A DNA stretch of 64,000 nt from a virus, in IMG/VR virus record IMGVR_UViG_3300032308_001297, positions 1-64,000 of that record. One strand, written 5' to 3'. Shown one piece after another: positions 4,360-52,081 of the stretch. Each line of letters starts with the position of its first letter. The stretch's first letter is position 1. The notes below the pieces were generated by a model. The model was not told the origin of the DNA. It did no database searches and saw only the letters and a program-made list of their open reading frames with translations. The position numbers and the translations under genes are program-made.

Positions 4360-4425
4360 GCTGATGCTCCTCTTTAGCATTAGAGTAGGTAGGGATTGCA
4401 GTCCCGTGACCTACACCTATTTAGT
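4360..4425 (-). promoter_or_regulatory. late promoter (ACTAAATA) and structured leader of the homing endonuclease
   Basis: Minus strand: ACTAAATA; GTAGGT..GGGA-ctgcaa-TCCC..ACCTAC; CTAATGCT-aaagagg-AGCATCAG covering the SD. Confidence 0.55.
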
Positions 4426-4442
4426 CAAAAAAGGATTTTACT

Positions 4443-5108
4443 ATGACTACATTTAAAGAAGCATTCGCTGCTGCGAAAAAATCAGGTAAAGAGACATTCG
4501 TATACGACGGTAAACTTTATAGCACTGAAGTTGCTGTTAAAAATGCTGATGAAAATGATCATCTAGATGTTCTTAATACATCAAAAGTTGAAACTACAAA
4601 ATCAGTTAAATTAAAGAAGAACGTATGGCCACTACAGAGTCAGCTACTTTCTCTTTATGGTTCGCCAAGTTACGTAGTTCCATCATTCAAGAAGAATAAT
4701 ATCGGAGTTGCTGTTCTTCCATATACAATGTGGATGGATAACATTCGTTTCGATAAGTTTGCTATGCATAAGTCATGCGTGGATTCTTTCGTTCGTGTTA
4801 TGACATATATTTGGGAAGCAAACGATAAAGACTACGATAAGATCAAAGCACAACAGCTACATGTATTCTCTGGTTGTTGGAACATCAGAGCAAAGCGTGG
4901 CGGATCTACAGCATCCGTTCATTCATGGGCTCTAGCAGTAGATATTGCTGCTCCATATAATGCTTTGGGTAAAAAGCCAGGATATAACAAATATTCATTC
5001 ACAAATGATTCTTTAATTGTTAAAGCATTTAAGGAAGAAGGTTGGGTTTGGGGTGGCGACTGGTCTAGACCAGATGGTATGCATTTCCAAGCAGCAAGGG
5101 TGGGATAA
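4443..5108 (+). CDS. endolysin, peptidase M15 family
   Basis: SVHSWALAVDI, WGGDWSRPDGMHFQ zinc-peptidase motifs. Confidence 0.85.
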   Translation: MTTFKEAFAAAKKSGKETFVYDGKLYSTEVAVKNADENDHLDVLNTSKVETTKSVKLKKNVWPLQSQLLSLYGSPSYVVPSFKKNNIGVAVLPYTMWMDNIRFDKFAMHKSCVDSFVRVMTYIWEANDKDYDKIKAQQLHVFSGCWNIRAKRGGSTASVHSWALAVDIAAPYNALGKKPGYNKYSFTNDSLIVKAFKEEGWVWGGDWSRPDGMHFQAARVG

Positions 5109-5123
5109 TAACGAAGGTATATT

Positions 5124-6752
5124 ATGAAGATTATAGGTGTTACTGGTTTTCATGACAGCAGTGCTGTATTGTTGCAAGATGGCGAAATAAAATTATTCTT
5201 CAAAGAGGAGAGAATCACCAGAAGAAAAAGAGCATATTCTGCTGTTCAATCTGTAGATAGAATATTACAAAATCACAAAGATATAGATTATTTCGCCACT
5301 TGCGATCCATATAATAACGAAGATACATTCTATAAAACATATTCAAGAATTCATAAATCTGAGATGATAGATTACACATCTTCGCATCATCTTTGTCATG
5401 CTAGTTTAGCTTTTTATAATAGTGGTTTCGATAACTGTCTTGTTTTCGTGATTGATAGAAATGGCTCTGTAATTCATGATATAATGAGAGAATCCGAATC
5501 AGTTTTCGAAGCCTCGTATCCTTGTGAGTTTAAACCTTTACATAAAAATTACTGGCTTAATAACATCGGCGCTGATCACGACGCTGTAATTATTAAAGAA
5601 ATCGAAAAATTTAAATCACAAAATAATTTTACATTTAATATTGATAGTTTAATGAGTATAGTTAAAGTATACGAAAGTGCCACCACTTTAATTGGACAAC
5701 ATCCATTAGAAAACGGAAAAACCATGGGGTTGGCTTCGTATGGAGAAGATAAAGAACATGTAAACTTTTTTATTGATGGCCGACCTATAGATAATTACTT
5801 CATTCAAGATTATTTTACAACAAAATATACAGCTTCTGTTTTACTCAAAAAACATCTTGATAAAATAACCAGAGAAGTAACAAAAGAAAATTATAAATTC
5901 TATGCAGATTACGCTTTTCAAGTTCAGAAACAAACACAGCAAGAGGTTTTAAATTTTGTCTCTGAATGGGTTAACAAAACTGGTATTAAGAATGTTTGTT
6001 TGACTGGTGGATATGCATTAAACGTTGTTTGTAACGAATATCTATTAAGAAATCTTCCTGGTGTTAATTTTTATTTCGAACCATTAGCGGACGATACCGG
6101 CAATAGCATTGGCTCTGCTATGTTGTTACATAGACATTTGACCAAAGATAAAACAATCAGAAAAACCAAACACACATTTTTTCATGGTATAAAAACGCCT
6201 CTACAACATGTGGGTGTAGATTGTAATGTTGATGACATAGTTGAAAAAATTCTAGAACAAAAAACTGTCGCAGTATTTAATGGAATGGCAGAATCTGGAC
6301 CAAGAGCTCTCGGTAATAGATCTATTATCTTTGATGCTCGTAATCCAAACGCAAAAGAAATAGTTAATATAATAAAGAAAAGAGAGTGGTATAGACCTTT
6401 TGCTGGGTTTATGTTAGAAGAATATTTTCAAGAGTATTTTGAGACGCATGGATTAAACAAATCGGAATTCATGACTATTTCTTTTGATTGTAAGAAACCA
6501 AATGAAATTCCAGGTATTGTTCATGTTGATAATTCTTGTAGAATACAAACAGTGAACGAAAATATTCCTCACATAAAAGAATTGCTACTAAGATTTTATA
6601 ATAAAACAGGATGCCCTGCTCTTCTTAACACCAGTTTTAATTTAGCAGGGGAAGCATTAATTGATACACAACAAGAAGCCATAGAATGTTTTTATAATTC
6701 TAATTTAGATGTTCTTTGGTTTCCAGAGATTGGAAAATGTTTGACTAAATGA
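5124..6752 (+). CDS. carbamoyltransferase (NodU/CmcH family)
   Basis: HDSSA..EERITR, HHLCHA, GKTMGLA, GPRALGNRS, KKREWYRPFA, LLNTSFN. Confidence 0.93.
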   Translation: MKIIGVTGFHDSSAVLLQDGEIKLFFKEERITRRKRAYSAVQSVDRILQNHKDIDYFATCDPYNNEDTFYKTYSRIHKSEMIDYTSSHHLCHASLAFYNSGFDNCLVFVIDRNGSVIHDIMRESESVFEASYPCEFKPLHKNYWLNNIGADHDAVIIKEIEKFKSQNNFTFNIDSLMSIVKVYESATTLIGQHPLENGKTMGLASYGEDKEHVNFFIDGRPIDNYFIQDYFTTKYTASVLLKKHLDKITREVTKENYKFYADYAFQVQKQTQQEVLNFVSEWVNKTGIKNVCLTGGYALNVVCNEYLLRNLPGVNFYFEPLADDTGNSIGSAMLLHRHLTKDKTIRKTKHTFFHGIKTPLQHVGVDCNVDDIVEKILEQKTVAVFNGMAESGPRALGNRSIIFDARNPNAKEIVNIIKKREWYRPFAGFMLEEYFQEYFETHGLNKSEFMTISFDCKKPNEIPGIVHVDNSCRIQTVNENIPHIKELLLRFYNKTGCPALLNTSFNLAGEALIDTQQEAIECFYNSNLDVLWFPEIGKCLTK

Positions 6753-6768
6753 TAATTTATAGTATAAT
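6741..6768 (+). promoter_or_regulatory. sigma70-like promoter upstream of the DNA polymerase
   Basis: TTGACT-N16-TATAAT. Confidence 0.55.
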
Positions 6769-6824
6769 GCATAATAGCATCTGTGGGTTCGATTGTGGAC
6801 CGGATAGCGTTTATTGGAGGTTAG

Positions 6825-9308
6825 ATGTCATTTTATACGAACGTATATTTAAGAGGTAATAGAGTTTATGTTAGGGGGTTTGATAAAGGATTAAGGTTCA
6901 AAGACGTTGTTAATTATACACCATATTTGTTCATCCCCAAAGCAAATGGTAACTATAAAACATTAGATGGAAAGTCTGTAGGTAAGCTCGATTTTGATTC
7001 TGTAAGTGATGCGAGAGATTTTATTTCTCGATACGAGCAAGTATCAAATATGGAGATCTATGGCCTAACAACATTTTTGTATTTGTATATTTTTGATAAT
7101 TATAAGGGTGATATTGATTACGATCCTAAACTTGTTAACATTGCAACAATAGATATTGAGTGTGCTGCCGATGAAGGGTTTCCAGATATTCAAAGGGCTG
7201 ATAAGCCTCTTACTGCAATCACTCTTCGAAGTAGGAATCGTAATTTTGTTTTCGGTTGTGGTGATTTTAAAACTGATGACGTAAATACGTATTATATGAA
7301 ATGTAAAGATGAGTATGAACTCATACAGAAGTTTCTAGAGTGTTGGGAAAATTTAGATATCGATATTATTACAGGGTGGAACATTGAGTTCTTTGATATT
7401 CCGTATATTGTTAATCGCATTCGCAACCTATTTAACGATACTGAAGCTCGTCGTCTATCTCCATGGCGTATTCTCGACGAGAAGATTGTCGAGTTCAGAG
7501 GCAAAGAAAATCAGAGCTTTAATCCAGCTGGTATCTCCGTTCTTGATTATTATCAGTTATATCGTAAGTTCATGTTTGGTAATCAAGAATCTTATAAGTT
7601 GGATTTTATCGCAAACGTGGAACTGGGCGAAAAGAAGATTGACTACTCTGAGTATGGTAACCTACTCGAGTTATACAAAAATAATCACCAGAAGTTTATT
7701 GAATATAACATTCACGATTGTGTTTTGGTTGATCGTCTAGATGATAAATTAAAATTCCTAGAACAATCTATGGCCATTGCTTATGACGCCAAGGTTAATT
7801 ACCCTGACGTTATGACGACTGTGCGTCCATGGGATATTATTATTCATAACTATCTTCTTGATCAGGGAATTGTTATTCCTCCAATGAAGAAGCAACAGAT
7901 GGATGGTGCACTTATTGGAGGCCACGTTAAAGAGCCAAAGATTGGATTAAGTAAGTGGGTTGTTTCTTTTGACTTGAACAGTCTATATCCTCATTTGATT
8001 ATGCAGTATAATATCAGTCCAGAAACATTTGCTGGTAAAGTTGATATGCCATCGGTTGATGGATTACTAGAGGGTAACTTTAAATTCGTTCATGATGATC
8101 TTTCGCATGCAGCTAATGGTTGTGCATATAGAAAAGATCAGCAGGGTTTCTTACCTGCACTTATGGAGAAGATGTATAACGATCGCACCAAGTATAAGAA
8201 GTTGATGCTTGAGGCCAAACAACGTTATGAGAATAAACCTAACTCTGAAGATGAGAAGTTAGTTGCTCGTTATCATAATATGCAGATGGCCAAAAAGATT
8301 CAGTTAAACTCTGCTTACGGCGCAATGGCTAATCAGTGGTTCCGTTGGTTTAACTTCGATCACGCAGAAGCAATTACAATGTCAGGGCAGCTTTCTATTC
8401 GTTGGATTGAAAAGAAGATGAACCTGTTTATGAATAAGGTTCTTAACAATCATAATATAGCGGATAGAGATTATGTTATCGCATCTGATACAGATTCTAT
8501 TTACGTTGAAATGGATCATTTGGTAGCTCACCTAGATACCGATAACGAATTAGATATTGTCGTTGCTATTGATAAATTCTGCGAACAAAAGATTCAGCCT
8601 TATCTAGATAAGTGTTACGAAGAACTTGCTGTATATATGAATGCGTATCAGCAAAAAATGAAAATGAAGAGGGAAACAATTGCGAACAAAGGTATTTGGC
8701 GTGGCAAAAAAATGTATATCCTCAACGCTTGGAATGTTGAGGGCGTACAATATTCGGAACCCAAACTTAAACTCCAAGGTATTGAAGCGGTACGTTCGAG
8801 CACTCCAAAGGCGTGTAGAGAAAACATTAAAAAATCTTTAGGAATTATTATGAACGGAACTCAGGATGAATTACAAAAATTCATTCAAGATTTCCGCGAA
8901 GAATTTATTTCGTTACCGTTTGAAGATGTTGCTTTCCCAAGAGGCGTAAAATATCTAGGAAAGTATTCTAAAAACAGAAACCAGATATACGATAAGGGAA
9001 CTCCAATTCACATCAAGGGTGCATTAATCTTTAATAATCTATTGAAGAAGCATGGAATTACTAGTATTCCTGCAATCCAAGACGGTGATAAGATTCGTTT
9101 CGCTTATCTAAAGATTCCTAATCCTGTGCAGGAATCTGTTGTTGCAGTTCCTGATGAATTACCAAAGGAACTTGAATTTATCGATAAGTATATTGACAGA
9201 GAAATGCAATTCAATAAATCATTCCTAGAACCGCTCAAATCTATTACAGAAGTAATTGGTTGGGCTACGGAGAAACATTCAAACTTAGAGGATTTTTTCA
9301 ATGACTGA
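6825..9308 (+). CDS. gp43: T4-like DNA polymerase (family B)
   Basis: DIE exonuclease motif, SFDLNSLYP, KIQLNSAYG, SDTDS; no intein. Confidence 0.97.
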   Translation: MSFYTNVYLRGNRVYVRGFDKGLRFKDVVNYTPYLFIPKANGNYKTLDGKSVGKLDFDSVSDARDFISRYEQVSNMEIYGLTTFLYLYIFDNYKGDIDYDPKLVNIATIDIECAADEGFPDIQRADKPLTAITLRSRNRNFVFGCGDFKTDDVNTYYMKCKDEYELIQKFLECWENLDIDIITGWNIEFFDIPYIVNRIRNLFNDTEARRLSPWRILDEKIVEFRGKENQSFNPAGISVLDYYQLYRKFMFGNQESYKLDFIANVELGEKKIDYSEYGNLLELYKNNHQKFIEYNIHDCVLVDRLDDKLKFLEQSMAIAYDAKVNYPDVMTTVRPWDIIIHNYLLDQGIVIPPMKKQQMDGALIGGHVKEPKIGLSKWVVSFDLNSLYPHLIMQYNISPETFAGKVDMPSVDGLLEGNFKFVHDDLSHAANGCAYRKDQQGFLPALMEKMYNDRTKYKKLMLEAKQRYENKPNSEDEKLVARYHNMQMAKKIQLNSAYGAMANQWFRWFNFDHAEAITMSGQLSIRWIEKKMNLFMNKVLNNHNIADRDYVIASDTDSIYVEMDHLVAHLDTDNELDIVVAIDKFCEQKIQPYLDKCYEELAVYMNAYQQKMKMKRETIANKGIWRGKKMYILNAWNVEGVQYSEPKLKLQGIEAVRSSTPKACRENIKKSLGIIMNGTQDELQKFIQDFREEFISLPFEDVAFPRGVKYLGKYSKNRNQIYDKGTPIHIKGALIFNNLLKKHGITSIPAIQDGDKIRFAYLKIPNPVQESVVAVPDELPKELEFIDKYIDREMQFNKSFLEPLKSITEVIGWATEKHSNLEDFFND

Positions 9309-37592: not shown

Positions 37593-38423
37593 ATGAATAT
37601 TATTTGGTCTGATTTTGATGCCGATTCAGAATGGTCTGTGAAACAACGCGAAGCAAAACAAGTAAATGGTCCAGAATATTGGCCAACGATGCGGGAAGTG
37701 TTCAAGCATGATTGTGCTACGCTCCCGCTAAATCGTTTTCGTTTATGGGCTAGTATCCATAACGTTCCTCTTGTAACTCAATATCGCACTTCTCGTTTCT
37801 TTGGCGAAGCATTTTATCATGCTTATCGCGACTCAGAAATCTATGAGGCTCTAGTAGAAAATTGGATTGGTATACCAGAAGCAATGGCTGGTGCACTTCG
37901 TCCAACTAATGATTTTGATACTTCAACACAGCGTATTCAGAACCTTGGTCATCTTATGATTACTGGGTTTGGTAAAGAGAAGCTACGTTCAATCAAGTCA
38001 ATTGTTGAGATTGGTGCTGGATATGGTGATATGTGTTCGCTTATCCACGATCTTGGATTCCAAGGCGAATATACTATCGTTGACATTCCAGAGACTCAGC
38101 CAGTTCAAGAGTTCTATCTTGGCAAGCAGGGCATCACGCCTAAGTGGTCATTTGAAGATGATAATGTAACACATGCTGATCTAGTTATTGCTACATGGTC
38201 ATTGTCTGAGACTCCACTCGAATATCGTGCGCAGCTGATGCCAAAGATTGATCAGTCAAAGAACTGGTTAATCATGGCGCAGTCTGAAGTTTTTGGTCAG
38301 AAAGTCAATGACGAATACTTCACTAACTTCTTCAAGGATAAGAACCTAACAAAGATTCCTCTTGGTTCTGAAGATATGAAGCAGTGGGATGGAGACAATA
38401 ATTATTATGTTGTGAGGGATTAA
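37593..38423 (+). CDS. putative sugar O-methyltransferase
   Basis: IVEIGAGYG, YTIVDIPE, IATWSLSE. Confidence 0.75.
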   Translation: MNIIWSDFDADSEWSVKQREAKQVNGPEYWPTMREVFKHDCATLPLNRFRLWASIHNVPLVTQYRTSRFFGEAFYHAYRDSEIYEALVENWIGIPEAMAGALRPTNDFDTSTQRIQNLGHLMITGFGKEKLRSIKSIVEIGAGYGDMCSLIHDLGFQGEYTIVDIPETQPVQEFYLGKQGITPKWSFEDDNVTHADLVIATWSLSETPLEYRAQLMPKIDQSKNWLIMAQSEVFGQKVNDEYFTNFFKDKNLTKIPLGSEDMKQWDGDNNYYVVRD

Positions 38424-38932
38424 TGCTTAATAATGGTTCAACGCCATCAACTGATATGTATTATGGATGTACCGAAAAAAATGTTTGGCGTCCGGGTAGC
38501 GGTATTACATTCGGCACCTTTGATCTATTACATTCTGGTCATATTACTATGCTTGAGCAGTGTAGAAGTCAGTGCGATTATTTAATTGTTGGGTTACAAT
38601 CTGACCCAACAATCGATCGTCCTGATACTAAGAACCGTCCAGTTCAGTCTCTTTTTGAAAGATATGCGCAGTTATCTTCTAGCCGCTTTGTCGACCAAAT
38701 TATTCCCTATGATACAGAAGAGGACTTGGCAAATATGCTAAGTATCCTGGATGTTAAAAAGAGATTCCTTGGCGAAGAATATAATGGCCAGTTTATCTAT
38801 GCTGGTGATGTTTGCAAGCTAAGAAATATTGAATTAGTTTACATCGAACGCAAACACAATTATTCATCATCAAATCTAAGGACCAGAGTATATGCTAGAG
38901 AGTTGTCAAAACGCACCAATAATCCATCTTGA
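38423..38932 (+). CDS. HxGH cytidylyl/nucleotidyltransferase (TagD/RfaE-II-like)
   Basis: GTFDLLHSGH, LIVGLQSDP, YSSSNLR. Confidence 0.88.
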   Translation: MLNNGSTPSTDMYYGCTEKNVWRPGSGITFGTFDLLHSGHITMLEQCRSQCDYLIVGLQSDPTIDRPDTKNRPVQSLFERYAQLSSSRFVDQIIPYDTEEDLANMLSILDVKKRFLGEEYNGQFIYAGDVCKLRNIELVYIERKHNYSSSNLRTRVYARELSKRTNNPS

Positions 38933-39446
38933 ATATTTTGCACAGCAAGCACAAAATCTTGAAGGTCTAATATTAGAATTTGGTGTAGCCAAAGGCAGAA
39001 CAATCACAAAGATCGCTCAAACATTACCAGAAAGAACGGTATATGGATTTGATTGGTTTCAAGGGTTGCCAGAAGATTGGGCAAATGGATATATGGCTGG
39101 GCATTTTGCTTGCGATAAACCAACAGATCTACCAGAGAACGTAGTAATCGTAGAAGGATTATTCAAGAAAACAGTTCCAGGATTTATTAAAGAACATAAA
39201 GATGAGAAGGTTGCTTTCATGCATGTTGATTGCGACATCTATTCATCCGCCAAATATGTTCTTGATAAGTTCGAAAAGAAATTCCAAGATGGTTCAATTG
39301 TTGTCTTTGATGAGTTTATCATATATAATAATTATCAACATCATGAATGGAAAGCATGGCATGAGTTCTTAGAAAAAACTAAGTATAATTACGAAGTGCT
39401 CGGAAGAGCTCACCAAGAAAGTGTAGCATTTAGAATTTACAAGTGA
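38892..39446 (+). CDS. TylF/MycF-like SAM-dependent O-methyltransferase
   Basis: LEFGVAKG, GFDWFQGLPE, HVDCDIYSS, FDE. Confidence 0.85.
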   Translation: MLESCQNAPIIHLEYFAQQAQNLEGLILEFGVAKGRTITKIAQTLPERTVYGFDWFQGLPEDWANGYMAGHFACDKPTDLPENVVIVEGLFKKTVPGFIKEHKDEKVAFMHVDCDIYSSAKYVLDKFEKKFQDGSIVVFDEFIIYNNYQHHEWKAWHEFLEKTKYNYEVLGRAHQESVAFRIYK

Positions 39447-39453
39447 GGATATT

Positions 39454-40038
39454 ATGTCATTTACTGATCAGTATTTTAATGAAGTAGTAGATATTGCCAA
39501 TGAAATCGATAAAAACAAAATTGAGATCATGGCTCGTGGTCTTGCAGACATCACTGCACATGCTGGGCGTGTGTTTGTGCTTGGCGTGGGTGGTAGCGCT
39601 GGTAACGCTTCCCATATGGTTAATGATCTTCGAAAGCTATGTGGGATCGAAGCATACTGCCCCACAGACAACGTTCCAGAACTTACAGCTAGAACGAACG
39701 ACGAAGGGTTTGACACCGTTTTCGAAGGATATCTCAGAGTAAGTAATCTAAACAAGTATGATTGTATCTTTATTCTATCAGTTGGTGGTGGTAATAAAGA
39801 AAAGAATGTATCAGTTGGGCTAGTAAAGGCAATTGATTATGCGAATTATGTTGGCGCTCATGTTTACGGTATTGTCGGCAAGGCAGATGGATACACTGCT
39901 GAAAAAGGGAATTGTGTGGTGGTTATTCCTCAGCTGGCTCCAGACAGAGTCACACCACACTCAGAAGCATTCCAAGGAACAGTCTGGCATTGTTTAGTTT
40001 CTAATCCTGTTTTGCAGAAAAATAAAACAAAATGGTAA
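39454..40038 (+). CDS. gmhA: phosphoheptose isomerase (SIS domain)
   Basis: GVGGSAGNASH..ND, TARTND.G, SVGGG, HSE. Confidence 0.82.
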   Translation: MSFTDQYFNEVVDIANEIDKNKIEIMARGLADITAHAGRVFVLGVGGSAGNASHMVNDLRKLCGIEAYCPTDNVPELTARTNDEGFDTVFEGYLRVSNLNKYDCIFILSVGGGNKEKNVSVGLVKAIDYANYVGAHVYGIVGKADGYTAEKGNCVVVIPQLAPDRVTPHSEAFQGTVWHCLVSNPVLQKNKTKW

Positions 40039-40574
40039 AGGCAGTATTCATTGATCGTGATGGTACGATCAACAAACTTATCCATGGCAGAGAACAAGAA
40101 AAACATGTGTGCCCTTGGTTGTATTCAGAGTTCGAATATATTGCTGGAGCTCATGAAGCTGTTGCTAAATTTAAAAGTTTAGGTTATACTACACATCTAG
40201 TAACAAATCAACCTGACGTTGATGATGGTTATACAACCGAAGAAACTATGAACGCTATCCATGACACTATCAAGAAAGATTTAAAACTTGATACTATCAA
40301 CGTAGCAAGAACACGTAACACACCCGAATACAAACCAAACTCAGGTATGATAGATAGTATAGTTGAAAAATGGGTTGTGACCAGAGAACGTAGTTGGATG
40401 ATTGGTGATACATGGCGTGATGTTGTTGCTGGTCATCGTGCTGGTTTAATCACTATATATATTGGTATTACATATAGAGCACCAAAAGAATATCCTAATA
40501 TTTTTCCTGATTATTGTGCAGTAGATCTACTTGAGGCGAGTAAGATCATAGAACAAAACGAGGCTGGAAGATGA
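40032..40574 (+). CDS. gmhB: heptose bisphosphate phosphatase (HAD-IIIA)
   Basis: FIDRDGTIN, VTNQPD, KP.SGM, WMIGD..RD. Confidence 0.85.
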   Translation: MVKAVFIDRDGTINKLIHGREQEKHVCPWLYSEFEYIAGAHEAVAKFKSLGYTTHLVTNQPDVDDGYTTEETMNAIHDTIKKDLKLDTINVARTRNTPEYKPNSGMIDSIVEKWVVTRERSWMIGDTWRDVVAGHRAGLITIYIGITYRAPKEYPNIFPDYCAVDLLEASKIIEQNEAGR

Positions 40575-41311
40575 ACATTGAGATTTATGCTGATGGAGCA
40601 GATTATAAAGGTATTATTGAATCTGCAAAAAATGAAAAAATTACTGGTTTTACTACTAATCCAACACTAATGAAGCAAGCTGGTATTAGCGACTATGAAG
40701 GGTTTGCTAGGAGAATCATTACTGATCTAAAAACAATGCGTCCAGGCACAAATATTTCTCTAGAAGTATTTGCTGATGATGTAGAAGGAATGTATGCTCA
40801 GGCAAAGAAGATCGCTGCTTGGGGCAAAAAAGCAGAATATGATGTTTACGTTAAGATTCCAATTACTAACACTCATGGCGAGTCAAACGCTGGTCTAGTT
40901 AGACTTCTAAACGAAGAAGGTGTTAAGGTAAATGTTACTGCTGTGTTTACTCCAGAGCAGACAAAGGGCATTCTAGAAAACATTAATACGAATACACCAA
41001 TTATTATTTCTATTTTTGCTGGTCGTATTGCTGACACTCTAAGAGATCCGGTTCGTTCTACAATAGATTGCGTCAATCAGACATGGAATTTTGAACCAAA
41101 GAATATGGAAAACGTAAAGTTCCTTTGGGCTTCATGTCGTGAACAGTATCATTTGATCATGGCTGAACAAGCTGGTTGTCACATTATTACAATGCTTCAC
41201 GATCAAATCAAGAAGCTACATCTAACTGACAAAAACCTTGAAGAGTTTTCTAGAGAAACTGTTCAGATGTTTTATAACGATGCTACTGCATCAGGATTTA
41301 GGATTGACTAA
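40571..41311 (+). CDS. tal: transaldolase
   Basis: YADGA, GFTTNPTLM, ISLEV, VYVKIP, VNVTAVF, FAGRIAD, LWASCRE. Confidence 0.92.
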   Translation: MNIEIYADGADYKGIIESAKNEKITGFTTNPTLMKQAGISDYEGFARRIITDLKTMRPGTNISLEVFADDVEGMYAQAKKIAAWGKKAEYDVYVKIPITNTHGESNAGLVRLLNEEGVKVNVTAVFTPEQTKGILENINTNTPIIISIFAGRIADTLRDPVRSTIDCVNQTWNFEPKNMENVKFLWASCREQYHLIMAEQAGCHIITMLHDQIKKLHLTDKNLEEFSRETVQMFYNDATASGFRID

Positions 41312-42315
41312 TGAAGGGTTTTGAAGAGAACGAAATTTCCGAGAAGGCTAACGGCGGAACTGAGATCGCCAAGCGCAAACTAGCAGAGATTCTTCCTGAT
41401 GAATTGCTAGAAAATTTTCAAATTATTTGTTCACGCCCACGTGATTTAGATGGAAGTAAGATTCGTTTGTTCTGGTGTCATGATCTACCAGAAGATCCAG
41501 AGTCTGCTAAGTTTCGTGATGTAAAATGGCGTAACAAGTTTCATAAGTTTATCTTTATTTCTAACTGGCAGTATCAACGCTATCAGTTAGTTCATGGTCT
41601 ACCTTATGACCAAAAATCAATTATTCTAGAATCAGGTATTATTCCTGCTCCGGAAAGTTGTTTTGATAAGCCAGACGATAAGATTCGTTTAGTTTATACA
41701 TCAACCCCGCAGCGTGGTCTTGATATTCTTGTTCATGTATTTAAGGAACTAGCAAAAGACAATCCAGATATTCATCTTGATGTGTTTTCTTCTTTTAAGA
41801 TCTATGGTTGGGACGACGCTGATAAACAGTTTGAACATTTGTATGATGAAATTCGTAATCATCCACAAATGACCTATCATGGATTCGTTCCGAATGATCA
41901 ACTCAAAGAACATCTTAACAAGTCTCATATCTTTGCTTACCCCTCTGTTTGGACAGAAACATCCTGCAGGGCCATGCTCGAAGCTATGTCCGCTGGTTTG
42001 GTATGTGTTCATCCTAATCTTGGCGCTCTGCCGGAATCTTCCGGTGGTTTGAACGTTATGTTCCATGGTGATCTTAACGATATCAATAATCATGCAGCTG
42101 CATTTGCTGGTAATCTAAACGCTGCTATTGATTTCGTAAGAACAAAGAACCATGATAAGATGATCCGCTTCAATAAGATATTTGTTGACAGCAGATATAA
42201 TATCGATTATGTTAAGAATCGTTGGCAAGCAACTCTAGAAAAGTTACTTACAATATATCCTGACGATGAATCTCGTTGGTTTCCAAAGGAAATGTTTACA
42301 TATAAGGTAGAATAA
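41311..42315 (+). CDS. glycosyltransferase (GT4/GT-B)
   Basis: GGTE, YTSTPQRGL, YPS.W.ETSC..LEAMSAG. Confidence 0.88.
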   Translation: MKGFEENEISEKANGGTEIAKRKLAEILPDELLENFQIICSRPRDLDGSKIRLFWCHDLPEDPESAKFRDVKWRNKFHKFIFISNWQYQRYQLVHGLPYDQKSIILESGIIPAPESCFDKPDDKIRLVYTSTPQRGLDILVHVFKELAKDNPDIHLDVFSSFKIYGWDDADKQFEHLYDEIRNHPQMTYHGFVPNDQLKEHLNKSHIFAYPSVWTETSCRAMLEAMSAGLVCVHPNLGALPESSGGLNVMFHGDLNDINNHAAAFAGNLNAAIDFVRTKNHDKMIRFNKIFVDSRYNIDYVKNRWQATLEKLLTIYPDDESRWFPKEMFTYKVE

Positions 42316-42317
42316 TT

Positions 42318-43310
42318 ATGATTCTTACAAGAACTCCACTGCGTGTTTCATTCTTTAGTGGGGGAAGTGACATGCCATCCTTCTACGAACAGGAGGATGG
42401 CGCTGCTCTTTCTGTAACTATTGATAAATTCATTTATGTAATTGCACACAAAGTTCCACATATGGGTGTGCGTTGTATGTATGATGACGTCGAAGAACAG
42501 CACGACATTGAACAAATGCAGCATGCTATTACTCGTGAAACCTTAAAGTATTATGGTTATACAAAGGAGATCACAGTTGCATCTATTTCAGATATTATTA
42601 CTAAGGGTTCTGGGCTCGGTTCTTCTTCTGCTTTTACTGTGGGTTTGGTAAAAGCAGTATCTTGTTCCAAGTATGATAACAGTACACGTAGATATGTTGC
42701 TGATATTGCATGCGAAATAGAAATGAACAAGTGCGGATATCCTGTTGGTAAGCAAGATCAATACGCTGCAGCATGGGGAGGAATGAATTTATTTAAATTT
42801 AAGAAAAATGGGGAAGTAACAGTAGACGAATTACGTTTAACTAATCCTCACGTCCAAGCTCTTGAGAAAAATCTAATGCTTGTTTATTCTGGGCGTTCTA
42901 GAAATGCTAATAATATTCTCCAGAAACAACAGAAAGCCATGTTAGACATAGACAAATTTAACAAAGTTAAACGTTCTAAAGATAAGGCGTTCGAAGCAGT
43001 AGATCTTCTACACAAAGGTAAGATCGACGATTTCGGTAAACTATTACACGAATCTTGGCTCGACAAGAAAGGTGTCTGTGAAGAAATTACGCAAGACTAT
43101 TTCGACGAAATCTATGAAACAGCTATAAAGGCTGGAGCTCTTGGTGGTAAACTACTAGGTGCTGGTGGTGGTGGTTTCTTTATCTTCTACGTGCCGGAAA
43201 AGTATAGAACTTCTGTAGAGGGTGCAATCTCTACAAACCATACTGATTGTAGGATCTATGATTTTCAGTTTTATGGATCTGGATCTCACATTGTTTATCA
43301 TACTGGATAA
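42318..43310 (+). CDS. hddA: GHMP kinase, D-glycero-alpha-D-manno-heptose-7-phosphate kinase-like
   Basis: TPLRVSFFSGGSD, GSGLGSSS, GKQDQYA, GGKLLGAGGGGF. Confidence 0.85.
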   Translation: MILTRTPLRVSFFSGGSDMPSFYEQEDGAALSVTIDKFIYVIAHKVPHMGVRCMYDDVEEQHDIEQMQHAITRETLKYYGYTKEITVASISDIITKGSGLGSSSAFTVGLVKAVSCSKYDNSTRRYVADIACEIEMNKCGYPVGKQDQYAAAWGGMNLFKFKKNGEVTVDELRLTNPHVQALEKNLMLVYSGRSRNANNILQKQQKAMLDIDKFNKVKRSKDKAFEAVDLLHKGKIDDFGKLLHESWLDKKGVCEEITQDYFDEIYETAIKAGALGGKLLGAGGGGFFIFYVPEKYRTSVEGAISTNHTDCRIYDFQFYGSGSHIVYHTG

Positions 43311-45485: not shown

Positions 45486-46244
45486 ATGCAAGAAGAATCA
45501 ACAAAAAGATTAACCCGTAGAGAAAAAAGATTACTTCGACAACAAGGAAAAGAACCAAAGGAAAATTATCAAGAGAAAATAAATTTTCATCTTAAACATT
45601 TTCATCCTCTAACAGACAATCAAAGATTGGCATTCAATTCTTTTGAGGATGATAAAAATTTGATGCTTCATGGTATTGCCGGAACAGGTAAATCCTTTAT
45701 GGCGTTATACCTTTCTTTGAAGCAAATCCTTAGTGATCCTGAATGTGTTTATAAGAAAGTTGTTATCGTAAGATCAGTGGTCCCAACGAGAGACATGGGA
45801 TTTCTTCCTGGCAGCGATAAAGAAAAAACTAAAGTATATGAAGCGCCTTACTATGCGATCTGCACTGAATTGTTTGGTAGAGGCGATTCGTACGAGTATA
45901 TGAAAAAGAGAAACGTAATTGAATTTATTTCTACTTCTTTTATTAGAGGCATTACACTTAACGATTGTATCGTTATCGTGGATGAAATGCAAAACGCTAC
46001 TCTTCATGAGCTTGACTCTGTTATTACTCGTATTGGCCACAACTGCAAAGTAGTATTCTGTGGCGACTTTAGACAGTCAGATTTTACAAGAGATCACGAA
46101 CGTAGTGGATTAACAGATTTCATGCGTGTTGTTAAAAACATGAAATCGTTTGATCTTATTGAGTTCGAAGCAAAAGATATTGTAAGATCTTCTCTGGTTA
46201 AAGAATATATTATTCTCAAAGATAAAATGAGAATCATAACATAG
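45486..46244 (+). CDS. phoH: PhoH-like ATPase
   Basis: GIAGTGKS, MGFLPG, FIRGITL, VDEMQN, ITRIG, GDFRQSD, DIVRS. Confidence 0.95.
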   Translation: MQEESTKRLTRREKRLLRQQGKEPKENYQEKINFHLKHFHPLTDNQRLAFNSFEDDKNLMLHGIAGTGKSFMALYLSLKQILSDPECVYKKVVIVRSVVPTRDMGFLPGSDKEKTKVYEAPYYAICTELFGRGDSYEYMKKRNVIEFISTSFIRGITLNDCIVIVDEMQNATLHELDSVITRIGHNCKVVFCGDFRQSDFTRDHERSGLTDFMRVVKNMKSFDLIEFEAKDIVRSSLVKEYIILKDKMRIIT

Positions 46245-46252
46245 GAGGAATT

Positions 46253-46996
46253 GTGTCAAAAGATAAAAAGAAAAGATATCGTTCAATCTTTATATCTGAT
46301 GTGCACCTTGGAACCCGTCACTCTAACGCAGAAAAGCTATTAGAATTTCTTAAATCCACTGAAGCTGATAGGTATTATCTTATCGGTGATATTATAGATG
46401 GTTGGATGATGAGAAAGAAAGTTTATTGGCCACAAGAGCACAACAATGTGGTTCAATTCTTTTTGAAACAATCTAAAAAAGATATTAAAGTTATTTACAT
46501 AACAGGAAACCATGATGAATTCCTCAGAGAATACTCAGGAACTGTCATGGGTAACATTCAGATAGTAGATAATATTATACACACTGGTGTTGATGGTAAA
46601 AGATATCTTGTTATTCATGGAGATCAGTTTGATCTTGTAACAATGAATGCTAAATGGCTTGCTATGATTGGTGGTTGGTTATATGATAGAATGATTGATT
46701 TTAATAGACATCTACAATCTATATACAATATACTGGGAATTAATGGATTTTCTCTTTCTGCTTGGGCAAAATCTAGCGTAAAAGAAGCAGTAAACTTTAT
46801 CGGCGATTACGAAAAAGTAGTTGCTGATGCTGCCAAAAGGAGATGCGTCGATGGGGTGGTTTGCGGCCATATTCATCATGCTAATATATGTTCTTTTGAT
46901 AATATTGAATACATGAACTGTGGCGATTGGGTAGAATCATGCACTGCAATCGTAGAATACGACAATGGAAAGTTTGAGATTATAAGGAAACTATAA
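46253..46996 (+). CDS. plcP: PlcP-like phospholipase C (LpxH-family metallophosphoesterase)
   Basis: RYRSIFISDVHLGT, GDIIDGW, YWPQEHN, GNHDEFLR, IHGDQFD, SLSAWAK..VKEAVNFI, CGHIH, NCGDWVESCT. Confidence 0.8.
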   Translation: MSKDKKKRYRSIFISDVHLGTRHSNAEKLLEFLKSTEADRYYLIGDIIDGWMMRKKVYWPQEHNNVVQFFLKQSKKDIKVIYITGNHDEFLREYSGTVMGNIQIVDNIIHTGVDGKRYLVIHGDQFDLVTMNAKWLAMIGGWLYDRMIDFNRHLQSIYNILGINGFSLSAWAKSSVKEAVNFIGDYEKVVADAAKRRCVDGVVCGHIHHANICSFDNIEYMNCGDWVESCTAIVEYDNGKFEIIRKL

Positions 46997-47985
46997 TGAA
47001 TATTACTATTTTTACTGATGCGTGGGATCCGCAAATCAATGGTGTTGTTACAACATTAAAAACAACTGTCAAACATCTTGAGTCCCGTGGACATGAAGTT
47101 AAAGTAATTCATCCTGGTCTTTATAAATTGACTATTCCATTACAACCATCAACTGGCATTTTCATGCCAGTTTTGCCTATGGGTATTGCTGACGAAGAAG
47201 TAAAGAATGCTGACAAGATTCACATCGCAACAGAAGGAGCAATAGGTCTTGCCGCTAGATATAGCTGTAAAAAGTACAAGAAGTCTTTTACAACTTCCTT
47301 TCACACAAAATATCCGGAATACGTTAAGATACATACTGGTATTTCACCAAGAGTTAGCGGTGAGTATTTTCGTTGGTTCCATAGAGACAGCAGTGCTGTT
47401 ATGGTTACAACCCCCAGTATGGTTGATTACTGTAAGGAGTTGGATATCAAACATCTGAAAATTTGGTCTCGTGGAGTGGATACAAATCTATTCCATCCAA
47501 TGTATCCGAAACCAAAGGGTGAATTTATTTCTGCTGTTTATTGTGGTAGAATATCTGCAGAAAAGAATCTCGAAGCATTTCTTTCTATTGATAATCCAAC
47601 GATCACCAAAACTCTTATTGGCGATGGACCGCAATTAGAAGAATACAAAGCAAAATATCCAGATGCTATATTCCTTGGTAAAATGGATGCTAAAAGAATT
47701 GCTGCAGAGTTACCTAAACATGATGTGTTTGCTTGGCCTTCGCTAACAGATACATTTGGACTTGTTGTGTTGGAAGGAATGGCTTGTGGACTACCTGTTG
47801 CTGCATTCGATAACGAAGTTAATCGTTACATTATTGAAGACTCTGTTTCTGGTTTCTTAGTAAAAGAACATTTAGAATTAGCTATTGAAGATGCTATACA
47901 TTTAAAACCAGAAGATGCAGTAGCAAGAGCAGCTAAGTTCTCTTGGGAAGCAGCAACCGATCAATTCTTGGAGAATATAGCATGA
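46996..47985 (+). CDS. agt: GT4 glycosyltransferase, Agt-like diacylglycerol glycosyltransferase
   Basis: TDAWDPQINGVV.TL, HIATEG.IGLAAR, FTTSFHTKYPEY, WFH, WSRGVD, EKNLEAFL, PSLTDTFGLVVLEGMACG; coupled to the plcP-like gene. Confidence 0.75.
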   Translation: MNITIFTDAWDPQINGVVTTLKTTVKHLESRGHEVKVIHPGLYKLTIPLQPSTGIFMPVLPMGIADEEVKNADKIHIATEGAIGLAARYSCKKYKKSFTTSFHTKYPEYVKIHTGISPRVSGEYFRWFHRDSSAVMVTTPSMVDYCKELDIKHLKIWSRGVDTNLFHPMYPKPKGEFISAVYCGRISAEKNLEAFLSIDNPTITKTLIGDGPQLEEYKAKYPDAIFLGKMDAKRIAAELPKHDVFAWPSLTDTFGLVVLEGMACGLPVAAFDNEVNRYIIEDSVSGFLVKEHLELAIEDAIHLKPEDAVARAAKFSWEAATDQFLENIA

Positions 47986-48635
47986 CAGGAAGAACATTCT
48001 TCGTTCTTGACTATTGGCCAAAACCAGAGTATGGTAAGATTTATAACTTTCATTATGTAACAGTAGATGGATCAATGCCAGATCTACAAGTAAAGTTTGT
48101 TCTTTCTGATGATAGAAAAGATATTCTTTATGTCGACTACGACGCCGAAGGTAAGTGGGTTGATACTTGGTATATGAGATACATTCCAGGTCAAGGATTA
48201 ATGGAATGGAGAGACGACTATCCTACAGGCGGATGGTTTACTAAACGTAAAAAGATTGTTATGAATCCTGGCATTGGCTGGGGAGAGACCGGAACAATTG
48301 GTAGCTTCTATCAGAACTTTCCTAAGATGGATCCATTATCTTCTAATCCTCCGCAGTTTATGTCTGGAACTCAAACTGTTATTTGGGAGTCATGGTTACC
48401 AGAAATGATCCTCAGCAACGGGGATAAGTATACTGATATTGTAACAATGGTCTACCAGCAGTCTTGGGGAAAGAAAACTTCTGGCGCTCGTTATTATATG
48501 GCGAAAGGAATTGGTCCTATCGCAGTTCAGTGGATTGCTCCTCATCCATTCAAACCAGGACAGTTTGTCACTACGGCTAGAATGGATGCGAAATATACGG
48601 TGACTTATGGCACGCAGAAAGATATTCAAACATAA
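47982..48635 (+). CDS. hypothetical protein
   Basis: 217-aa aromatic-rich ORF, ATGA overlap. Confidence 0.65.
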   Translation: MTGRTFFVLDYWPKPEYGKIYNFHYVTVDGSMPDLQVKFVLSDDRKDILYVDYDAEGKWVDTWYMRYIPGQGLMEWRDDYPTGGWFTKRKKIVMNPGIGWGETGTIGSFYQNFPKMDPLSSNPPQFMSGTQTVIWESWLPEMILSNGDKYTDIVTMVYQQSWGKKTSGARYYMAKGIGPIAVQWIAPHPFKPGQFVTTARMDAKYTVTYGTQKDIQT

Positions 48636-49269: not shown

Positions 49270-49672
49270 CGCCAAACATTCCTTCTTCGTCTGTAGAGTA
49301 TACTGTTTTTTTGATACCAAAATGCTCAATGGCTTTAGAACACCCAGAGCAAGGTTCGGCCAAACCGCTAACCCAGTTTACATCTCCCTTATTAGTTTTC
49401 TTGACACGATAAACATAAAGGGTTGCATCTTTTAGATCCTCTTGTTCTACGATCCTCAATGCATTGATGATACAATCTACCTCTGCATGTTTAAAAATCG
49501 CATCGTTGTTCTTAGAAAATCTTTTCTGCAAAGGATGAGATTTATCGGAGTTAAGACCAACAGAAATTACCTCGTTACGAAGAACGAGGCAAGCAGCAAG
49601 TTTCATTCTCATATTATTGTTAATGGCAATTCGACGAACGAAAGCCATATATTTCAAATCACGTGAATTCAT
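49256..49672 (-). CDS. cytidine/dCMP deaminase-like protein
   Basis: HAE and PCSGC zinc motifs. Confidence 0.85.
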   Translation of the reverse strand: MNSRDLKYMAFVRRIAINNNMRMKLAACLVLRNEVISVGLNSDKSHPLQKRFSKNNDAIFKHAEVDCIINALRIVEQEDLKDATLYVYRVKKTNKGDVNWVSGLAEPCSGCSKAIEHFGIKKTVYSTDEEGMFGVSWQ

Positions 49673-50249
49673 CAGAGTATCCTAAATTGCGGAAGTCTCG
49701 AGCATAGATAATTCGAACTCTATCAATCAAATAAGAAGTATAGTCTTTATAATACTGTTCTTTCGAGTAAGAGCCAACATTTATTTTTGGTAAGGCTATA
49801 TTCATATCTCTCTCTAAATCTGAGATGTTTTCAAATCTATAGATCTTATCCATTTCTGTTTTACCATCTTCAAAGATATAAAAAGATTGATCATATTTAA
49901 TAAGCGGAGTTTTCTCCGTAGCCATTCCTTGTTCTATCATAGATAAAAAGTTTTTGAAAGATATGCTAGACGTATTAAATCTGCGAAAATGATGATAATA
50001 ACTATACGCTCTCGTAAAAGGATTTCTTACGACAGAGAATTTAAATGTGTCAGAAGGTATGTTATTATTCTGTTTAATTACATGGTAAGGATCATGACCG
50101 ATATGCCATGTCCTTACCCATTTATCTTTACCTATAGATTCTCTTAATGCAATCCCTGCAGTTTTAGGAATGTGCACAAAAAGAAAATTGGAGCGGGAGA
50201 TGGGAATCGAACCCACTACGAACAGCTTGGAAGGCTGACACTCTACCAA
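49659..50249 (-). CDS. sulfotransferase family 2 protein (start lies inside tRNA-Gly)
   Basis: FVHIPKTAG, VRNPFTRAYSYY, RFENI, DF..LGY. Confidence 0.75.
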   Translation of the reverse strand: MVECQPSKLFVVGSIPISRSNFLFVHIPKTAGIALRESIGKDKWVRTWHIGHDPYHVIKQNNNIPSDTFKFSVVRNPFTRAYSYYHHFRRFNTSSISFKNFLSMIEQGMATEKTPLIKYDQSFYIFEDGKTEMDKIYRFENISDLERDMNIALPKINVGSYSKEQYYKDYTSYLIDRVRIIYARDFRNLGYSDEFT

Positions 50250-50263
50250 TGAGTTACACCCGC
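50189..50263 (-). tRNA. tRNA-Gly(TCC)
   Basis: GCGGGTG acceptor, CTTCCAA loop, GGTTCGATTCCC T arm, TCCA 3' end. Confidence 0.88.
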
Positions 50264-50463
50264 AAACCCCATTTAATCTTTAACCATATTCTCTCATGAA
50301 TATAATAATCGATACTCAAAAGAATATGTAAGATTGTAGCAAATCCTGTCGACTTACCAATGTCTCCAGTAAATACGAAAGTCCAGAATATCGTAAACAA
50401 CCATGCGGTTAAACGATAACTAATCATTCTTACTACTGTACGTTTATGAGTTTCTTGTATCAT
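50254..50463 (-). CDS. DUF2061-like small membrane protein
   Basis: ETHKRT...SYR...YYIHERIWLKIKWG. Confidence 0.8.
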   Translation of the reverse strand: MIQETHKRTVVRMISYRLTAWLFTIFWTFVFTGDIGKSTGFATILHILLSIDYYIHERIWLKIKWGLRV

Positions 50464-50561
50464 TCGGATAACATGTTTATATCAGAAGCCACAAAGCCAA
50501 TGATAATTGTAATCAAAAAGAAACAAACAATCTTAATGATTGCACTTGTTTTGTGATCCAT
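50460..50561 (-). CDS. small membrane peptide (33 aa)
   Basis: MDHKTSAIIKIVCFFLITIIIGFVASDINMLSE; AAGGA SD; ATGA coupling. Confidence 0.5.
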   Translation of the reverse strand: MDHKTSAIIKIVCFFLITIIIGFVASDINMLSE

Positions 50562-50576
50562 AATCTATATCCTTTT

Positions 50577-51713
50577 CTAGATCAACATTCTAAATTTATC
50601 GTATAAATCTAGACCTTCAAAATTTACATCCAAAGAATGAGCCGTCCATATATCATGCGTGGCTGTTTTGGGGTATCTATTTTCTCTAAAAGCTCTATCA
50701 TAAAACACAGGCGATTGTATCGCCTTTCTCATACAATTTGCACCTTTTTCATGTGCCATTTTCCAGAAATCGTTTTCGAAAACAGAACCAGCAAAATAGT
50801 GCATCATAATAAGATCTTCATTTCCACTTATTCTTTGATGGTATTTAAGATTAACTTCTTCTTCTGTTTGATTATTTTCCACCCAGTATTCCCAAGCGAG
50901 TCTCTGAACGTAGTCAGTAGTATTAATAGTCGTGGCTTCTAAAGGTTCCAAGAAGAAAGAAGCATTGCCATTATATGCTACTCTACCATCAAAGTTTTTC
51001 TTTCTAATAAAACTTTTAAAAGGAAATGTAATAGTATCTTCGCTAGGAGTTAGATCGTATTCTCTGAATATATTATTACTATCTTCTTTAATCTGATCAA
51101 GAGTAGCATAATTATCGTTATACATATAACCTATGCTACATCTATTTTTCAAAGGTATACCAAAGAACCAACCATGTGGTCTTGCTTCGGTACGAGTATA
51201 ACTAAACTTTGGATAATCCCAATAACACTGAGTAACATGAACAGCGTTCACAGGAATATTCATCAAATCAATCTTTGAAAGATCTTTAGGAAACCCAGAA
51301 CAGTCAAATATATAATCAGAATCAATTTGATCGTGTAAGATATTTTGTTCTATGGTATTAATTCTTGGATCAAATCTTAGTTTTTCAAAAATATAATTCT
51401 GCAACTTAACTGCATTCACATGCCAAGCAATCATCGGCGTAGCAAAAGCATGATGAAATGTGTTCTTAGACCAATTCTTTTTAAAAATAGAATATTTAAA
51501 AGAACCGTCTACTTTATCTAGATCATAATGTTCAAACCCCAAGTTCTCATACAAACTCTTACAAACAAGAGGAGTAAGACCTTCTCCTACTGATTGTGTT
51601 TTAACATTAGGATCATAGTACCAATCTATTTCCCAATCAGTCCATTTTAGAAAGTGTGCTGCAGCAAAACAACCTGCAGTCCCTCTACCAATAATAGCTA
51701 ATTTTTTTGTCAT
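50577..51713 (-). CDS. tryptophan halogenase-like flavoprotein
   Basis: IIGRGTAG, VGEG, DCSGF, GWFFGIPL..R, GNASFFLEPLEAT. Confidence 0.85.
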   Translation of the reverse strand: MTKKLAIIGRGTAGCFAAAHFLKWTDWEIDWYYDPNVKTQSVGEGLTPLVCKSLYENLGFEHYDLDKVDGSFKYSIFKKNWSKNTFHHAFATPMIAWHVNAVKLQNYIFEKLRFDPRINTIEQNILHDQIDSDYIFDCSGFPKDLSKIDLMNIPVNAVHVTQCYWDYPKFSYTRTEARPHGWFFGIPLKNRCSIGYMYNDNYATLDQIKEDSNNIFREYDLTPSEDTITFPFKSFIRKKNFDGRVAYNGNASFFLEPLEATTINTTDYVQRLAWEYWVENNQTEEEVNLKYHQRISGNEDLIMMHYFAGSVFENDFWKMAHEKGANCMRKAIQSPVFYDRAFRENRYPKTATHDIWTAHSLDVNFEGLDLYDKFRMLI

Positions 51714-52081
51714 TGACAAACTGTAATCATATATGGATCGCCAAAGATATATCCGAAAGTATCCCAAGGATCTGGGTATGTTGTGCACACAGGACGAGGG
51801 ACAGGAACCTGTTCAATAATTACCTGTGGTGTTACTGGCATCATATAAACTTGATTAGTAACAATACCAACACCATTTGGAACATACTGCGGAGGAATAA
51901 CCTCCACAACAGGAGCAGGAGCCACGGGAACTGGAACAGGAACAGTCTTAACAACTTTCTTTACGACTGTTTTTGGACGAGTGTAATAAATCTTACAATC
52001 GTTACAGACATCGATCTCTTGACCTGCATAAGCAGGAGTAATCAAAAGACAAAGAGCAAGAGAGAGTTTCTTAATATCCAT
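51710..52081 (-). CDS. secreted Pro/Val-rich protein
   Basis: MDIKKLSLALCLLITPAYA signal peptide; four Cys in the mature part. Confidence 0.6.
   Translation of the reverse strand: MDIKKLSLALCLLITPAYAGQEIDVCNDCKIYYTRPKTVVKKVVKTVPVPVPVAPAPVVEVIPPQYVPNGVGIVTNQVYMMPVTPQVIIEQVPVPRPVCTTYPDPWDTFGYIFGDPYMITVCQ

Follow-up and report, generated by a model that had tools for sequence, protein, structure and literature searches.

A phage-borne plcP-agt gene pair as a candidate lipid-remodeling module in T4-like phages of methane-oxidizing bacteria

Introduction

In many lakes and oceans, phage production is held back by a shortage of phosphorus, and the phosphate auxiliary genes of T4-like phages, which are textbook knowledge, act on uptake from outside the cell. 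Whether a phage might also tap the phosphorus bound in the membranes of its host is the question raised by a gene pair, plcP-agt, in the IMG/VR virus record IMGVR_UViG_3300032308_001297 (162,364 bp, CheckV completeness 98%), a large T4-like phage of methane-oxidizing bacteria that carries pmoC. Herein we analyzed the first 64 kb of this record (hereafter “the window”), in which the pair encodes a metallophosphoesterase and a glycosyltransferase of family GT4. An earlier sequence-only reading of the same DNA had described phoH, the metallophosphoesterase and the GT4 as three consecutive open reading frames (ORFs) at 45486–47985, and had proposed that they form a cassette for mining phosphate from host membranes. 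The ORFs and their coordinates are as it described them.

The bacterial counterpart of this pair is well documented. In Methylosinus trichosporium OB3b, the synthesis of glucuronosyl-diacylglycerol, growth at low phosphate and the normal packing of intracytoplasmic membranes all depend on plcP-agt (PMC9239053), and in all type II methanotrophs plcP lies directly upstream of agt (PMC9239053), which confirms the background on which the sequence-only reading had drawn. PlcP-Agt is also found in Pelagibacter HTCC7211, Phaeobacter MED193, Sinorhizobium meliloti and Pseudomonas aeruginosa (cited in PMC9239053).

Results

A predicted PlcP orthologue under an LpxH name

The phosphoesterase gene (plcP; 46253–46996, + strand) encodes 247 amino acids (aa), and the databases name this protein and its phage relatives LpxH throughout. 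Its motifs, its scores against LpxH models and its position in trees place it in the PlcP family of Mn-type metallophosphoesterases. The window protein scored 42.7 bits against the LpxH model TIGR01854 (cut-off 190) and 51.1 bits against NF003743 (cut-off 134), and the same TIGR01854 model, when run on two Pseudomonas genomes, gave 332 and 328 bits at the LpxH locus vs. 44 bits at the plcP locus. Two Methylocystaceae genomes held only a low-scoring gene of the plcP type and no LpxH-scoring gene. Phage PlcP is 51–57% identical to the products of bacterial plcP genes (Methylocystis, other Rhizobiales and Pseudomonas), and a tblastn search with it at an E-value threshold of 1e-3 returned no alignment to the Pseudomonas LpxH loci.

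The metal-binding motifs are complete (SDVHLG at residue 15, GDIIDGW at 45, GNHDEF at 85, IHGDQFD at 121 and GHIHHA at 205), and the metal-binding residues of PlcP are invariant across an alignment of 32 sequences. Each of the signatures that had been noticed in the phosphoesterase beforehand, namely GNHD, YWPQ.HN, SLS.WAK and N.GDWVESCT, was found (the last three as YWPQEHN at 58, SLSAWAK at 167 and NCGDWVESCT at 222) and is common to phage and bacterial plcP products, whereas Pseudomonas LpxH carries GNRD and is without the rest. In trees rooted on LpxH, which were built with a quick search and with bacterial sampling from Pseudomonadota, the window protein falls with PlcP, and a branch of about 10 substitutions per site (support 100) sets the LpxH outgroup apart. 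Methylocystis and Pseudomonas orthologues stood in for the characterized SMc00171, PA3219, MED193 and HTCC7211 enzymes in this comparison.

At the level of structure, an AlphaFold (AF2) model of the phage protein (pLDDT 81) shares with LpxH (PDB 5k8k, 6pib) the calcineurin-like fold, including a helical insertion that separates the two halves of the core (Foldseek E about 1e-10). The 24 best matches of the model in the PDB are all LpxH, insertion included, at ~19% identity; we know of no solved PlcP structure to compare. The match in fold, with its helical insertion, fits a lipid-handling relative of LpxH. PlcP differs from LpxH in its low identity, in GNHD, in scores below the model cut-offs and in being a separate paralogue where genomes carry both, and its likely substrate would be a glycerophospholipid rather than a UDP-sugar lipid. 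An LpxH identity was rejected on the sub-cut-off scores, the Pseudomonas paralogue control, the tree and the GNHD and PlcP motifs. To judge from its sequence, the phosphoesterase is a PlcP orthologue and not LpxH.

A predicted diacylglycerol glycosyltransferase as partner

The following gene (agt; 46996–47985, + strand) encodes 329 aa with the GT-B architecture of GT4 enzymes (Glyco_transf_4 at residues 14–164 and Glycos_transf_1 at 180–302). The motif TDAW.PQ.NGVV, with which the sequence-only reading let the GT4 begin, is present as TDAWDPQINGVV at residue 7 and is common to bacterial agt orthologues. A useful reference is the GTcp group, which is defined by a His104-Asp256 dyad, with Asp where other GT4s carry Glu, and which shows the motifs GRVAxEKN and FPSxTDTFG, a Gly-rich motif and contacts to diacylglycerol (DAG) through His104, Thr162, Arg163 and Trp320 (PMC8231724). 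In vitro, GTcp makes MGlc-, MGal- and MGlcA-DAG (PMC8231724).

The phage protein resembles the GTcp of Pelagibacter HTCC7211 in length (329 vs. 334 aa), in its His-Asp dyad, in the UDP-sugar and Gly-rich motifs and in the DAG-contacting His, Arg and Trp. Specifically, the dyad is kept as His103 in SFHTKYPEY and Asp252 in WPSLTDTFG, Asp rather than Glu; the motifs read GRISAEKN (184), WPSLTDTFG (247), INGVV and ATEGAIG; and the equivalents of the DAG contacts are His103, Ser158 and Arg159 (in WSRGVD) and Trp317 (in KFSW). It differs from GTcp in the conservative replacement of Thr162 by Ser, as in many bacterial orthologues, and of Phe by Trp at the opening of the second motif. The same key columns are likewise conserved in bacterial plcP-linked genes.

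When phage Agt was searched against three whole bacterial genomes, the top match was always the gene immediately 3' of plcP (233, 218 and 212 bits), and the next-best matches in these genomes were 46 bits, none and 104 bits. The 104-bit match, in Ectopseudomonas mendocina (C1:1123067-1123804, 32% identity), lies away from plcP and may be the counterpart of the second Agt described in P. aeruginosa. In the Agt tree, one branch separates phage from bacterial proteins (support 89); here too, Methylocystis and Pseudomonas orthologues represented the characterized enzymes. Domains, key residues and genome searches identify the GT4 as a predicted DAG glycosyltransferase of the Agt/GTcp type. Both products of the pair group as the sequence-only reading had expected, with PlcP and plcP-linked Agt and not with LpxH or other GT4s. 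Direct reading of the sequences found no signal peptide at the N-terminus of either PlcP or Agt.

The conserved unit is plcP-agt

Within the window, plcP starts with GTG, 5 nt 3' of GGAGGA and 8 nt past the stop of phoH, and the ATG of agt overlaps the plcP stop TAA (TAATG), the overlap from which translational coupling of phosphoesterase and GT4 had been deduced. Our scan of IMG/VR retrieved 63 loci with a PlcP relative. An Agt relative follows plcP directly in 56 of them; six are without one despite room downstream, and in the remaining locus the contig ends early. Upstream of plcP, phoH was present in only 13 of the 63 loci. The three-gene phoH-plcP-agt cassette of the sequence-only reading has therefore to be narrowed to plcP-agt, and adjacency to phoH is specific to certain lineages. 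In the window, phoH (45486–46244, + strand) encodes a PhoH-like ATPase of 252 aa (PF02562, E 3e-45; phrog_170, E 2.9e-86), the PhoH domain scoring 154.7 bits vs. a Pfam cut-off of 27, and its dN/dS is 0.04–0.06.

The arrangement mirrors that of bacteria, where plcP stands directly upstream of agt in 69 of 80 loci: the two families and their order are the same, and no catalytic or signature residue has been lost. The phage version departs from the bacterial operon in being carried by a lytic T4-like phage, in lying within a run of phage genes behind phoH, in having no Pho box and a fully ameliorated phage GC content, and in that the phage copies form clades of their own which are not nested in a host lineage.

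The loci with plcP and no adjacent agt are L050, L051, L052, L056, L060 and L064, and the same is true of two cultured phages, Pelagibacter phage Mosig and Synechococcus phage S-SRM01; no close Agt relative was found in cultured phages. In phages without agt, the glycosyltransferase may come from the host, or PlcP may serve another purpose. In phage Mosig, plcP is divergent from an adjoining phosphate-transporter (pstS-type) gene.

Association with pmoC

The pmoC gene lies outside the pair at 2301–3062 (+ strand; PF04896, E 3.7e-110), so that its presence on the same phage, as noted before, is borne out. Its product is 85% identical to PmoC of a Methylocystis metagenome-assembled genome (MAG), which marks the record as a pmoC phage and points to Methylocystis as the probable host. 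The record is comparable to the small pmoC phages of alphaproteobacterial type in PMC7674155, such as LR_2 (160.7 kb, 37% GC, alphaproteobacterial pmoC, predicted Methylocystis host). The survey of other pmoC phages that the sequence-only reading had suggested showed that the pair recurs there: pmoC and plcP-agt occur together in at least five records, that is, the window record and 4 of 10 larger records checked. In three plcP-agt records of 84–86% completeness pmoC was not found, and the pair is therefore not confined to phages that carry pmoC. In the window, 43 kb separate the two loci. One lineage (L009, an IMG/VR record of 105.6 kb) carries plcP, agt, three small ORFs, pmoC and an hsp20-like gene at 3998–7403, all on one strand and within 3.5 kb, with plcP-agt ~0.9 kb 5' of pmoC.

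Origin, composition and selection

The GC content of plcP (34%) and agt (38%) is close to that of the window (36.7%), which is flat at about 36–37%, and far from that of Methylocystis plcP (61%) and agt (67%). Against other phage copies, dN/dS was 0.05–0.11 for plcP and 0.08–0.21 for agt; both genes are under purifying selection and their frames are intact. Compared with the Methylocystis MAG, PlcP is 52% and Agt 42% identical, vs. 85% for PmoC, and the best identity of PlcP among ~460 sampled Pseudomonadota genomes was no higher than 57%. A recent capture from the present host was rejected on these values.

In the PlcP tree the window protein sits within an all-phage clade of 23 rows (support 100), and identities within the phage PlcP clade span 68–100%. 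One branch divides the tree with all phage rows to one side; its support is 99 with narrow bacterial sampling and 48 with wider sampling, and the trees neither show nor reject a single origin of all phage PlcPs. A host chimera, which the sequence-only reading had named among the findings that would undo its proposal, was rejected as well, on the difference in GC (34–38% vs. 61–67%), on phage flanks on both sides and on synteny in many independent contigs. Taken together, GC, selection and the limits on identity argue for an old phage module and against both a chimera and a recent capture from Methylocystis. The history of pmoC appears to contrast with this, since its GC (44% vs. 36.7% for the window) and its high identity to the Methylocystis MAG suggest a much more recent capture.

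Gene neighborhood

The T4-like character of the record is seen in its gp43 polymerase, which is 49% identical to the polymerases of T4-like cyanomyophages. The pair is part of a same-strand run, packed more closely than the sequence-only reading had indicated, in the order gp33-like gene, phoH, plcP, agt, orf217 and PD-(D/E)XK exonuclease. The gp33-like regulator gene (84 aa, phrog_385) stops 10 nt 5' of phoH and is itself preceded by genes for T4 RNase H and a DUF6433 protein. On the other side of the pair, orf217 (47982–48635, + strand, 217 aa) begins with an ATG that overlaps the agt stop (ATGA). Neither a Pfam nor a PHROG family was assigned to it; in the Atlas it has hypothetical viral proteins as neighbors, and a weak lead points to DUF3108-like proteins. 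Copies that are 83, 68 and 44% identical lie 3' of agt in related loci, the gene is confined to near relatives of the window, and it is probably not a core part of the module.

Two further groups of genes were observed nearby. Upstream of the RNase H and DUF6433 genes, ~3 kb before plcP, a self-contained heptose-nucleotide module at 37593–43310 encodes cytidylyltransferase-like, SIS/GmhA-like and HAD/GmhB-like proteins, a TylF-type methyltransferase, a transaldolase, a group-1 glycosyltransferase and a GHMP kinase, and is probably a separate system for surface sugars or virion glycans. Past the run, the − strand carries at 49659–51788 two genes whose products resemble a sulfotransferase (phrog_3347) and a flavin (tryptophan) halogenase (phrog_2928, E 7e-63).

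Regulation without a Pho box

The window was scanned for Pho boxes with CTGTCATnnnnCTGTCAT, allowing up to 3 mismatches, which gave 5 matches vs. 6.6 expected and none near phoH-plcP-agt. As a control, the scan was applied to 14 bacterial loci and placed a box 78–108 nt before plcP in 7 of them, that of Methylocystis plcP being CTGTCATCGGACTGTGAC with 2 mismatches; the earlier remark that no clear Pho box lies upstream thus stands against a scan that does detect the bacterial ones. In a lineage of 165-kb pmoC phages (L030 and L039), a weak Pho-box-like sequence, CTGTCATAAAACGGTTAA (3 mismatches), lies 61 nt before plcP, and phage lineages may not all control the module in the same way.

The T4 late-promoter motif is present in exact form (TATAAATA) at 2213–2220, about 80 nt upstream of pmoC, and suggests late expression of that gene. 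No such motif occurs on the + strand from 35729 to the end of the window, and generic scans for sigma-70 promoters and terminators stayed at chance level. With neither a Pho box nor a T4 late promoter, plcP-agt would probably be expressed early or in the middle of infection, whatever the state of host PhoB. Most likely, early or middle transcription from further upstream would run through the pair as well as through genes of DNA metabolism.

Discussion

A lipid swap as the probable function

With the bacterial pathway taken as a model for the phage pair, we consider it probable, though by no means certain, that plcP-agt encodes a lipid-swap pathway by which the phage gains phosphorus and keeps the membranes of its host intact. 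In such a pathway, the cytoplasmic, Mn-type PlcP with its LpxH-like fold would cut the phospho-head group off host glycerophospholipids and leave DAG, onto which the translationally coupled Agt would load a sugar, glucose or glucuronic acid, taken from a UDP-sugar of the host. The product would be a phosphorus-free glycolipid, so that the bilayer would stay intact, and host phosphatases would free phosphate from the released head groups for the synthesis of phage nucleotides. In a host of the Methylocystis type, phosphorus would be gained while the membranes of the particulate methane monooxygenase (pMMO), which power the infection, would be preserved. The two genes are tightly coupled and nearly always occur together, which argues for remodeling rather than for destruction of the membrane; that the remodeling serves phosphate mining is what we infer.

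Several observations weigh against this assignment. Searches of the phage found no pstS, no ugd and no Pho box, which leaves phoH, itself of no established function, as the sole tie to phosphate stress. A phosphatase dedicated to the head groups set free is missing from the phage. Its Agt is only 36–42% identical to bacterial Agt, and the sugar specificity of the enzyme is not readable from sequence. The six environmental loci without agt, together with Mosig and S-SRM01, make a role of PlcP outside remodeling possible.

Alternative explanations

The chemistry could be as proposed and the benefit a different one. One alternative is that the pair changes the envelope of the host, through superinfection exclusion, altered sensitivity to membrane-active agents or grazers, or the timing of lysis. 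The missing Pho box, the absence of any other phosphate-uptake gene from the phage and the presence of a separate surface-sugar module (heptose pathway and glycosyltransferase, 38.4–43.3 kb) would all suit it, and PlcP-dependent remodeling has been linked to susceptibility to grazing and to antibiotic tolerance in PMC9457565 and in a P. aeruginosa study. We nevertheless consider it unlikely, given that the glycolipids are made at the cytoplasmic membrane and not at the surface, that plcP adjoins phoH here and a phosphate-transporter gene in Mosig, and that a long-term alteration is of little gain to lytic T4-like phages. A similarly low probability is given to the idea that the pair mainly keeps intracytoplasmic membranes and pMMO working at low phosphate, in concert with phage pmoC, with phosphorus release as a by-product. 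The gaps in intracytoplasmic membrane packing of the OB3b plcP-agt mutant at low phosphate (PMC9239053) and the shared occurrence of pmoC and plcP-agt, ~0.9 kb apart in one lineage, are what would be expected from membrane upkeep, but the pair is also found in the 84–86% complete records without pmoC, plcP occurs in phages of SAR11 and Synechococcus, and in the window the loci are distant and the late-promoter motif is at pmoC alone. Moreover, auxiliary genes of T4-like phages often cluster without a functional link. Phosphate mining, envelope change and upkeep of pMMO membranes would not be separable on the sequence alone.

Two further alternatives deny the chemistry itself. If the LpxH label were correct, LpxH and the GT4 would alter lipid A or lipopolysaccharide (LPS), as the database names, LpxH as the closest solved fold, the listing of lpxH under LPS auxiliary genes in viromics papers and an LPS-type heptose module 3 kb upstream might suggest. 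This is very improbable in view of scores of 43–51 bits where cut-offs of 190 and 134 apply and where the LpxH of Pseudomonas, a different gene, reaches ~330 bits; of Methylocystis genomes without an LpxH-scoring gene; of GNHD in place of GNRD, PlcP motifs that are missing from LpxH and the long LpxH branch; and of a partner glycosyltransferase that is the plcP-linked Agt. That the locus is an assembly chimera or decaying host DNA with no phage function is hardly credible: host genomes do hold the same gene pair in the same order, but phage-like GC, identities of at most 57% in the ~460 sampled Pseudomonadota genomes, phage flanks, synteny, intact frames and dN/dS well below 1 all speak against it.

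Relation to known phage genes

The reading that we prefer, phosphorus gain by lipid swap, would place plcP-agt beside the phosphate genes of T4-like cyanophages and pelagiphages (pstS, phoH and phoA), which are likewise host-derived and belong to the same phage group; unlike those genes, which serve external uptake, plcP-agt would tap host membrane lipids. A literature search, outside which most subscription journals lay, turned up no description of a phage plcP or plcP-agt, and the sequence-only reading likewise knew of no characterization of the pair as a phage auxiliary system. The main text of the pmoC-phage paper makes no mention of phoH, LpxH, lipid or glycosyltransferase genes, and the portion of its supplements that was searched gave no match for the PlcP family (PMC7674155). 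The announcement of the Mosig genome does not discuss plcP.

Implications

If the proposed function is true, a lipid swap would give phages access to a large internal pool of phosphorus. By a rough reckoning, a bacterium holds ~10^7 phospholipid molecules, about as much phosphorus as tens of 162-kb genomes contain; the number is higher in methanotrophs that have stacked internal membranes. The “lpxH” genes that viromics surveys count as LPS genes would then be misread, and glycolipid markers of phosphate stress could partly reflect infection. A genetic system in which to test the function already exists in the OB3b plcP-agt mutant.

More tentatively, and with rather more doubt than confidence, we suggest that aquatic T4-like phages force lipid renovation on their hosts regardless of host phosphate sensing, and use membrane phospholipid as a reserve of phosphorus for their DNA. 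Phages of methanotrophs would, together with pmoC, keep methane-oxidizing membranes running in phosphate-poor lakes, and infection would thereby alter both the lipids of the population and its capacity for methane oxidation. Should the function hold, plcP-agt would offer a second concrete handle, beside pmoC, on the viral shaping of methane oxidation.

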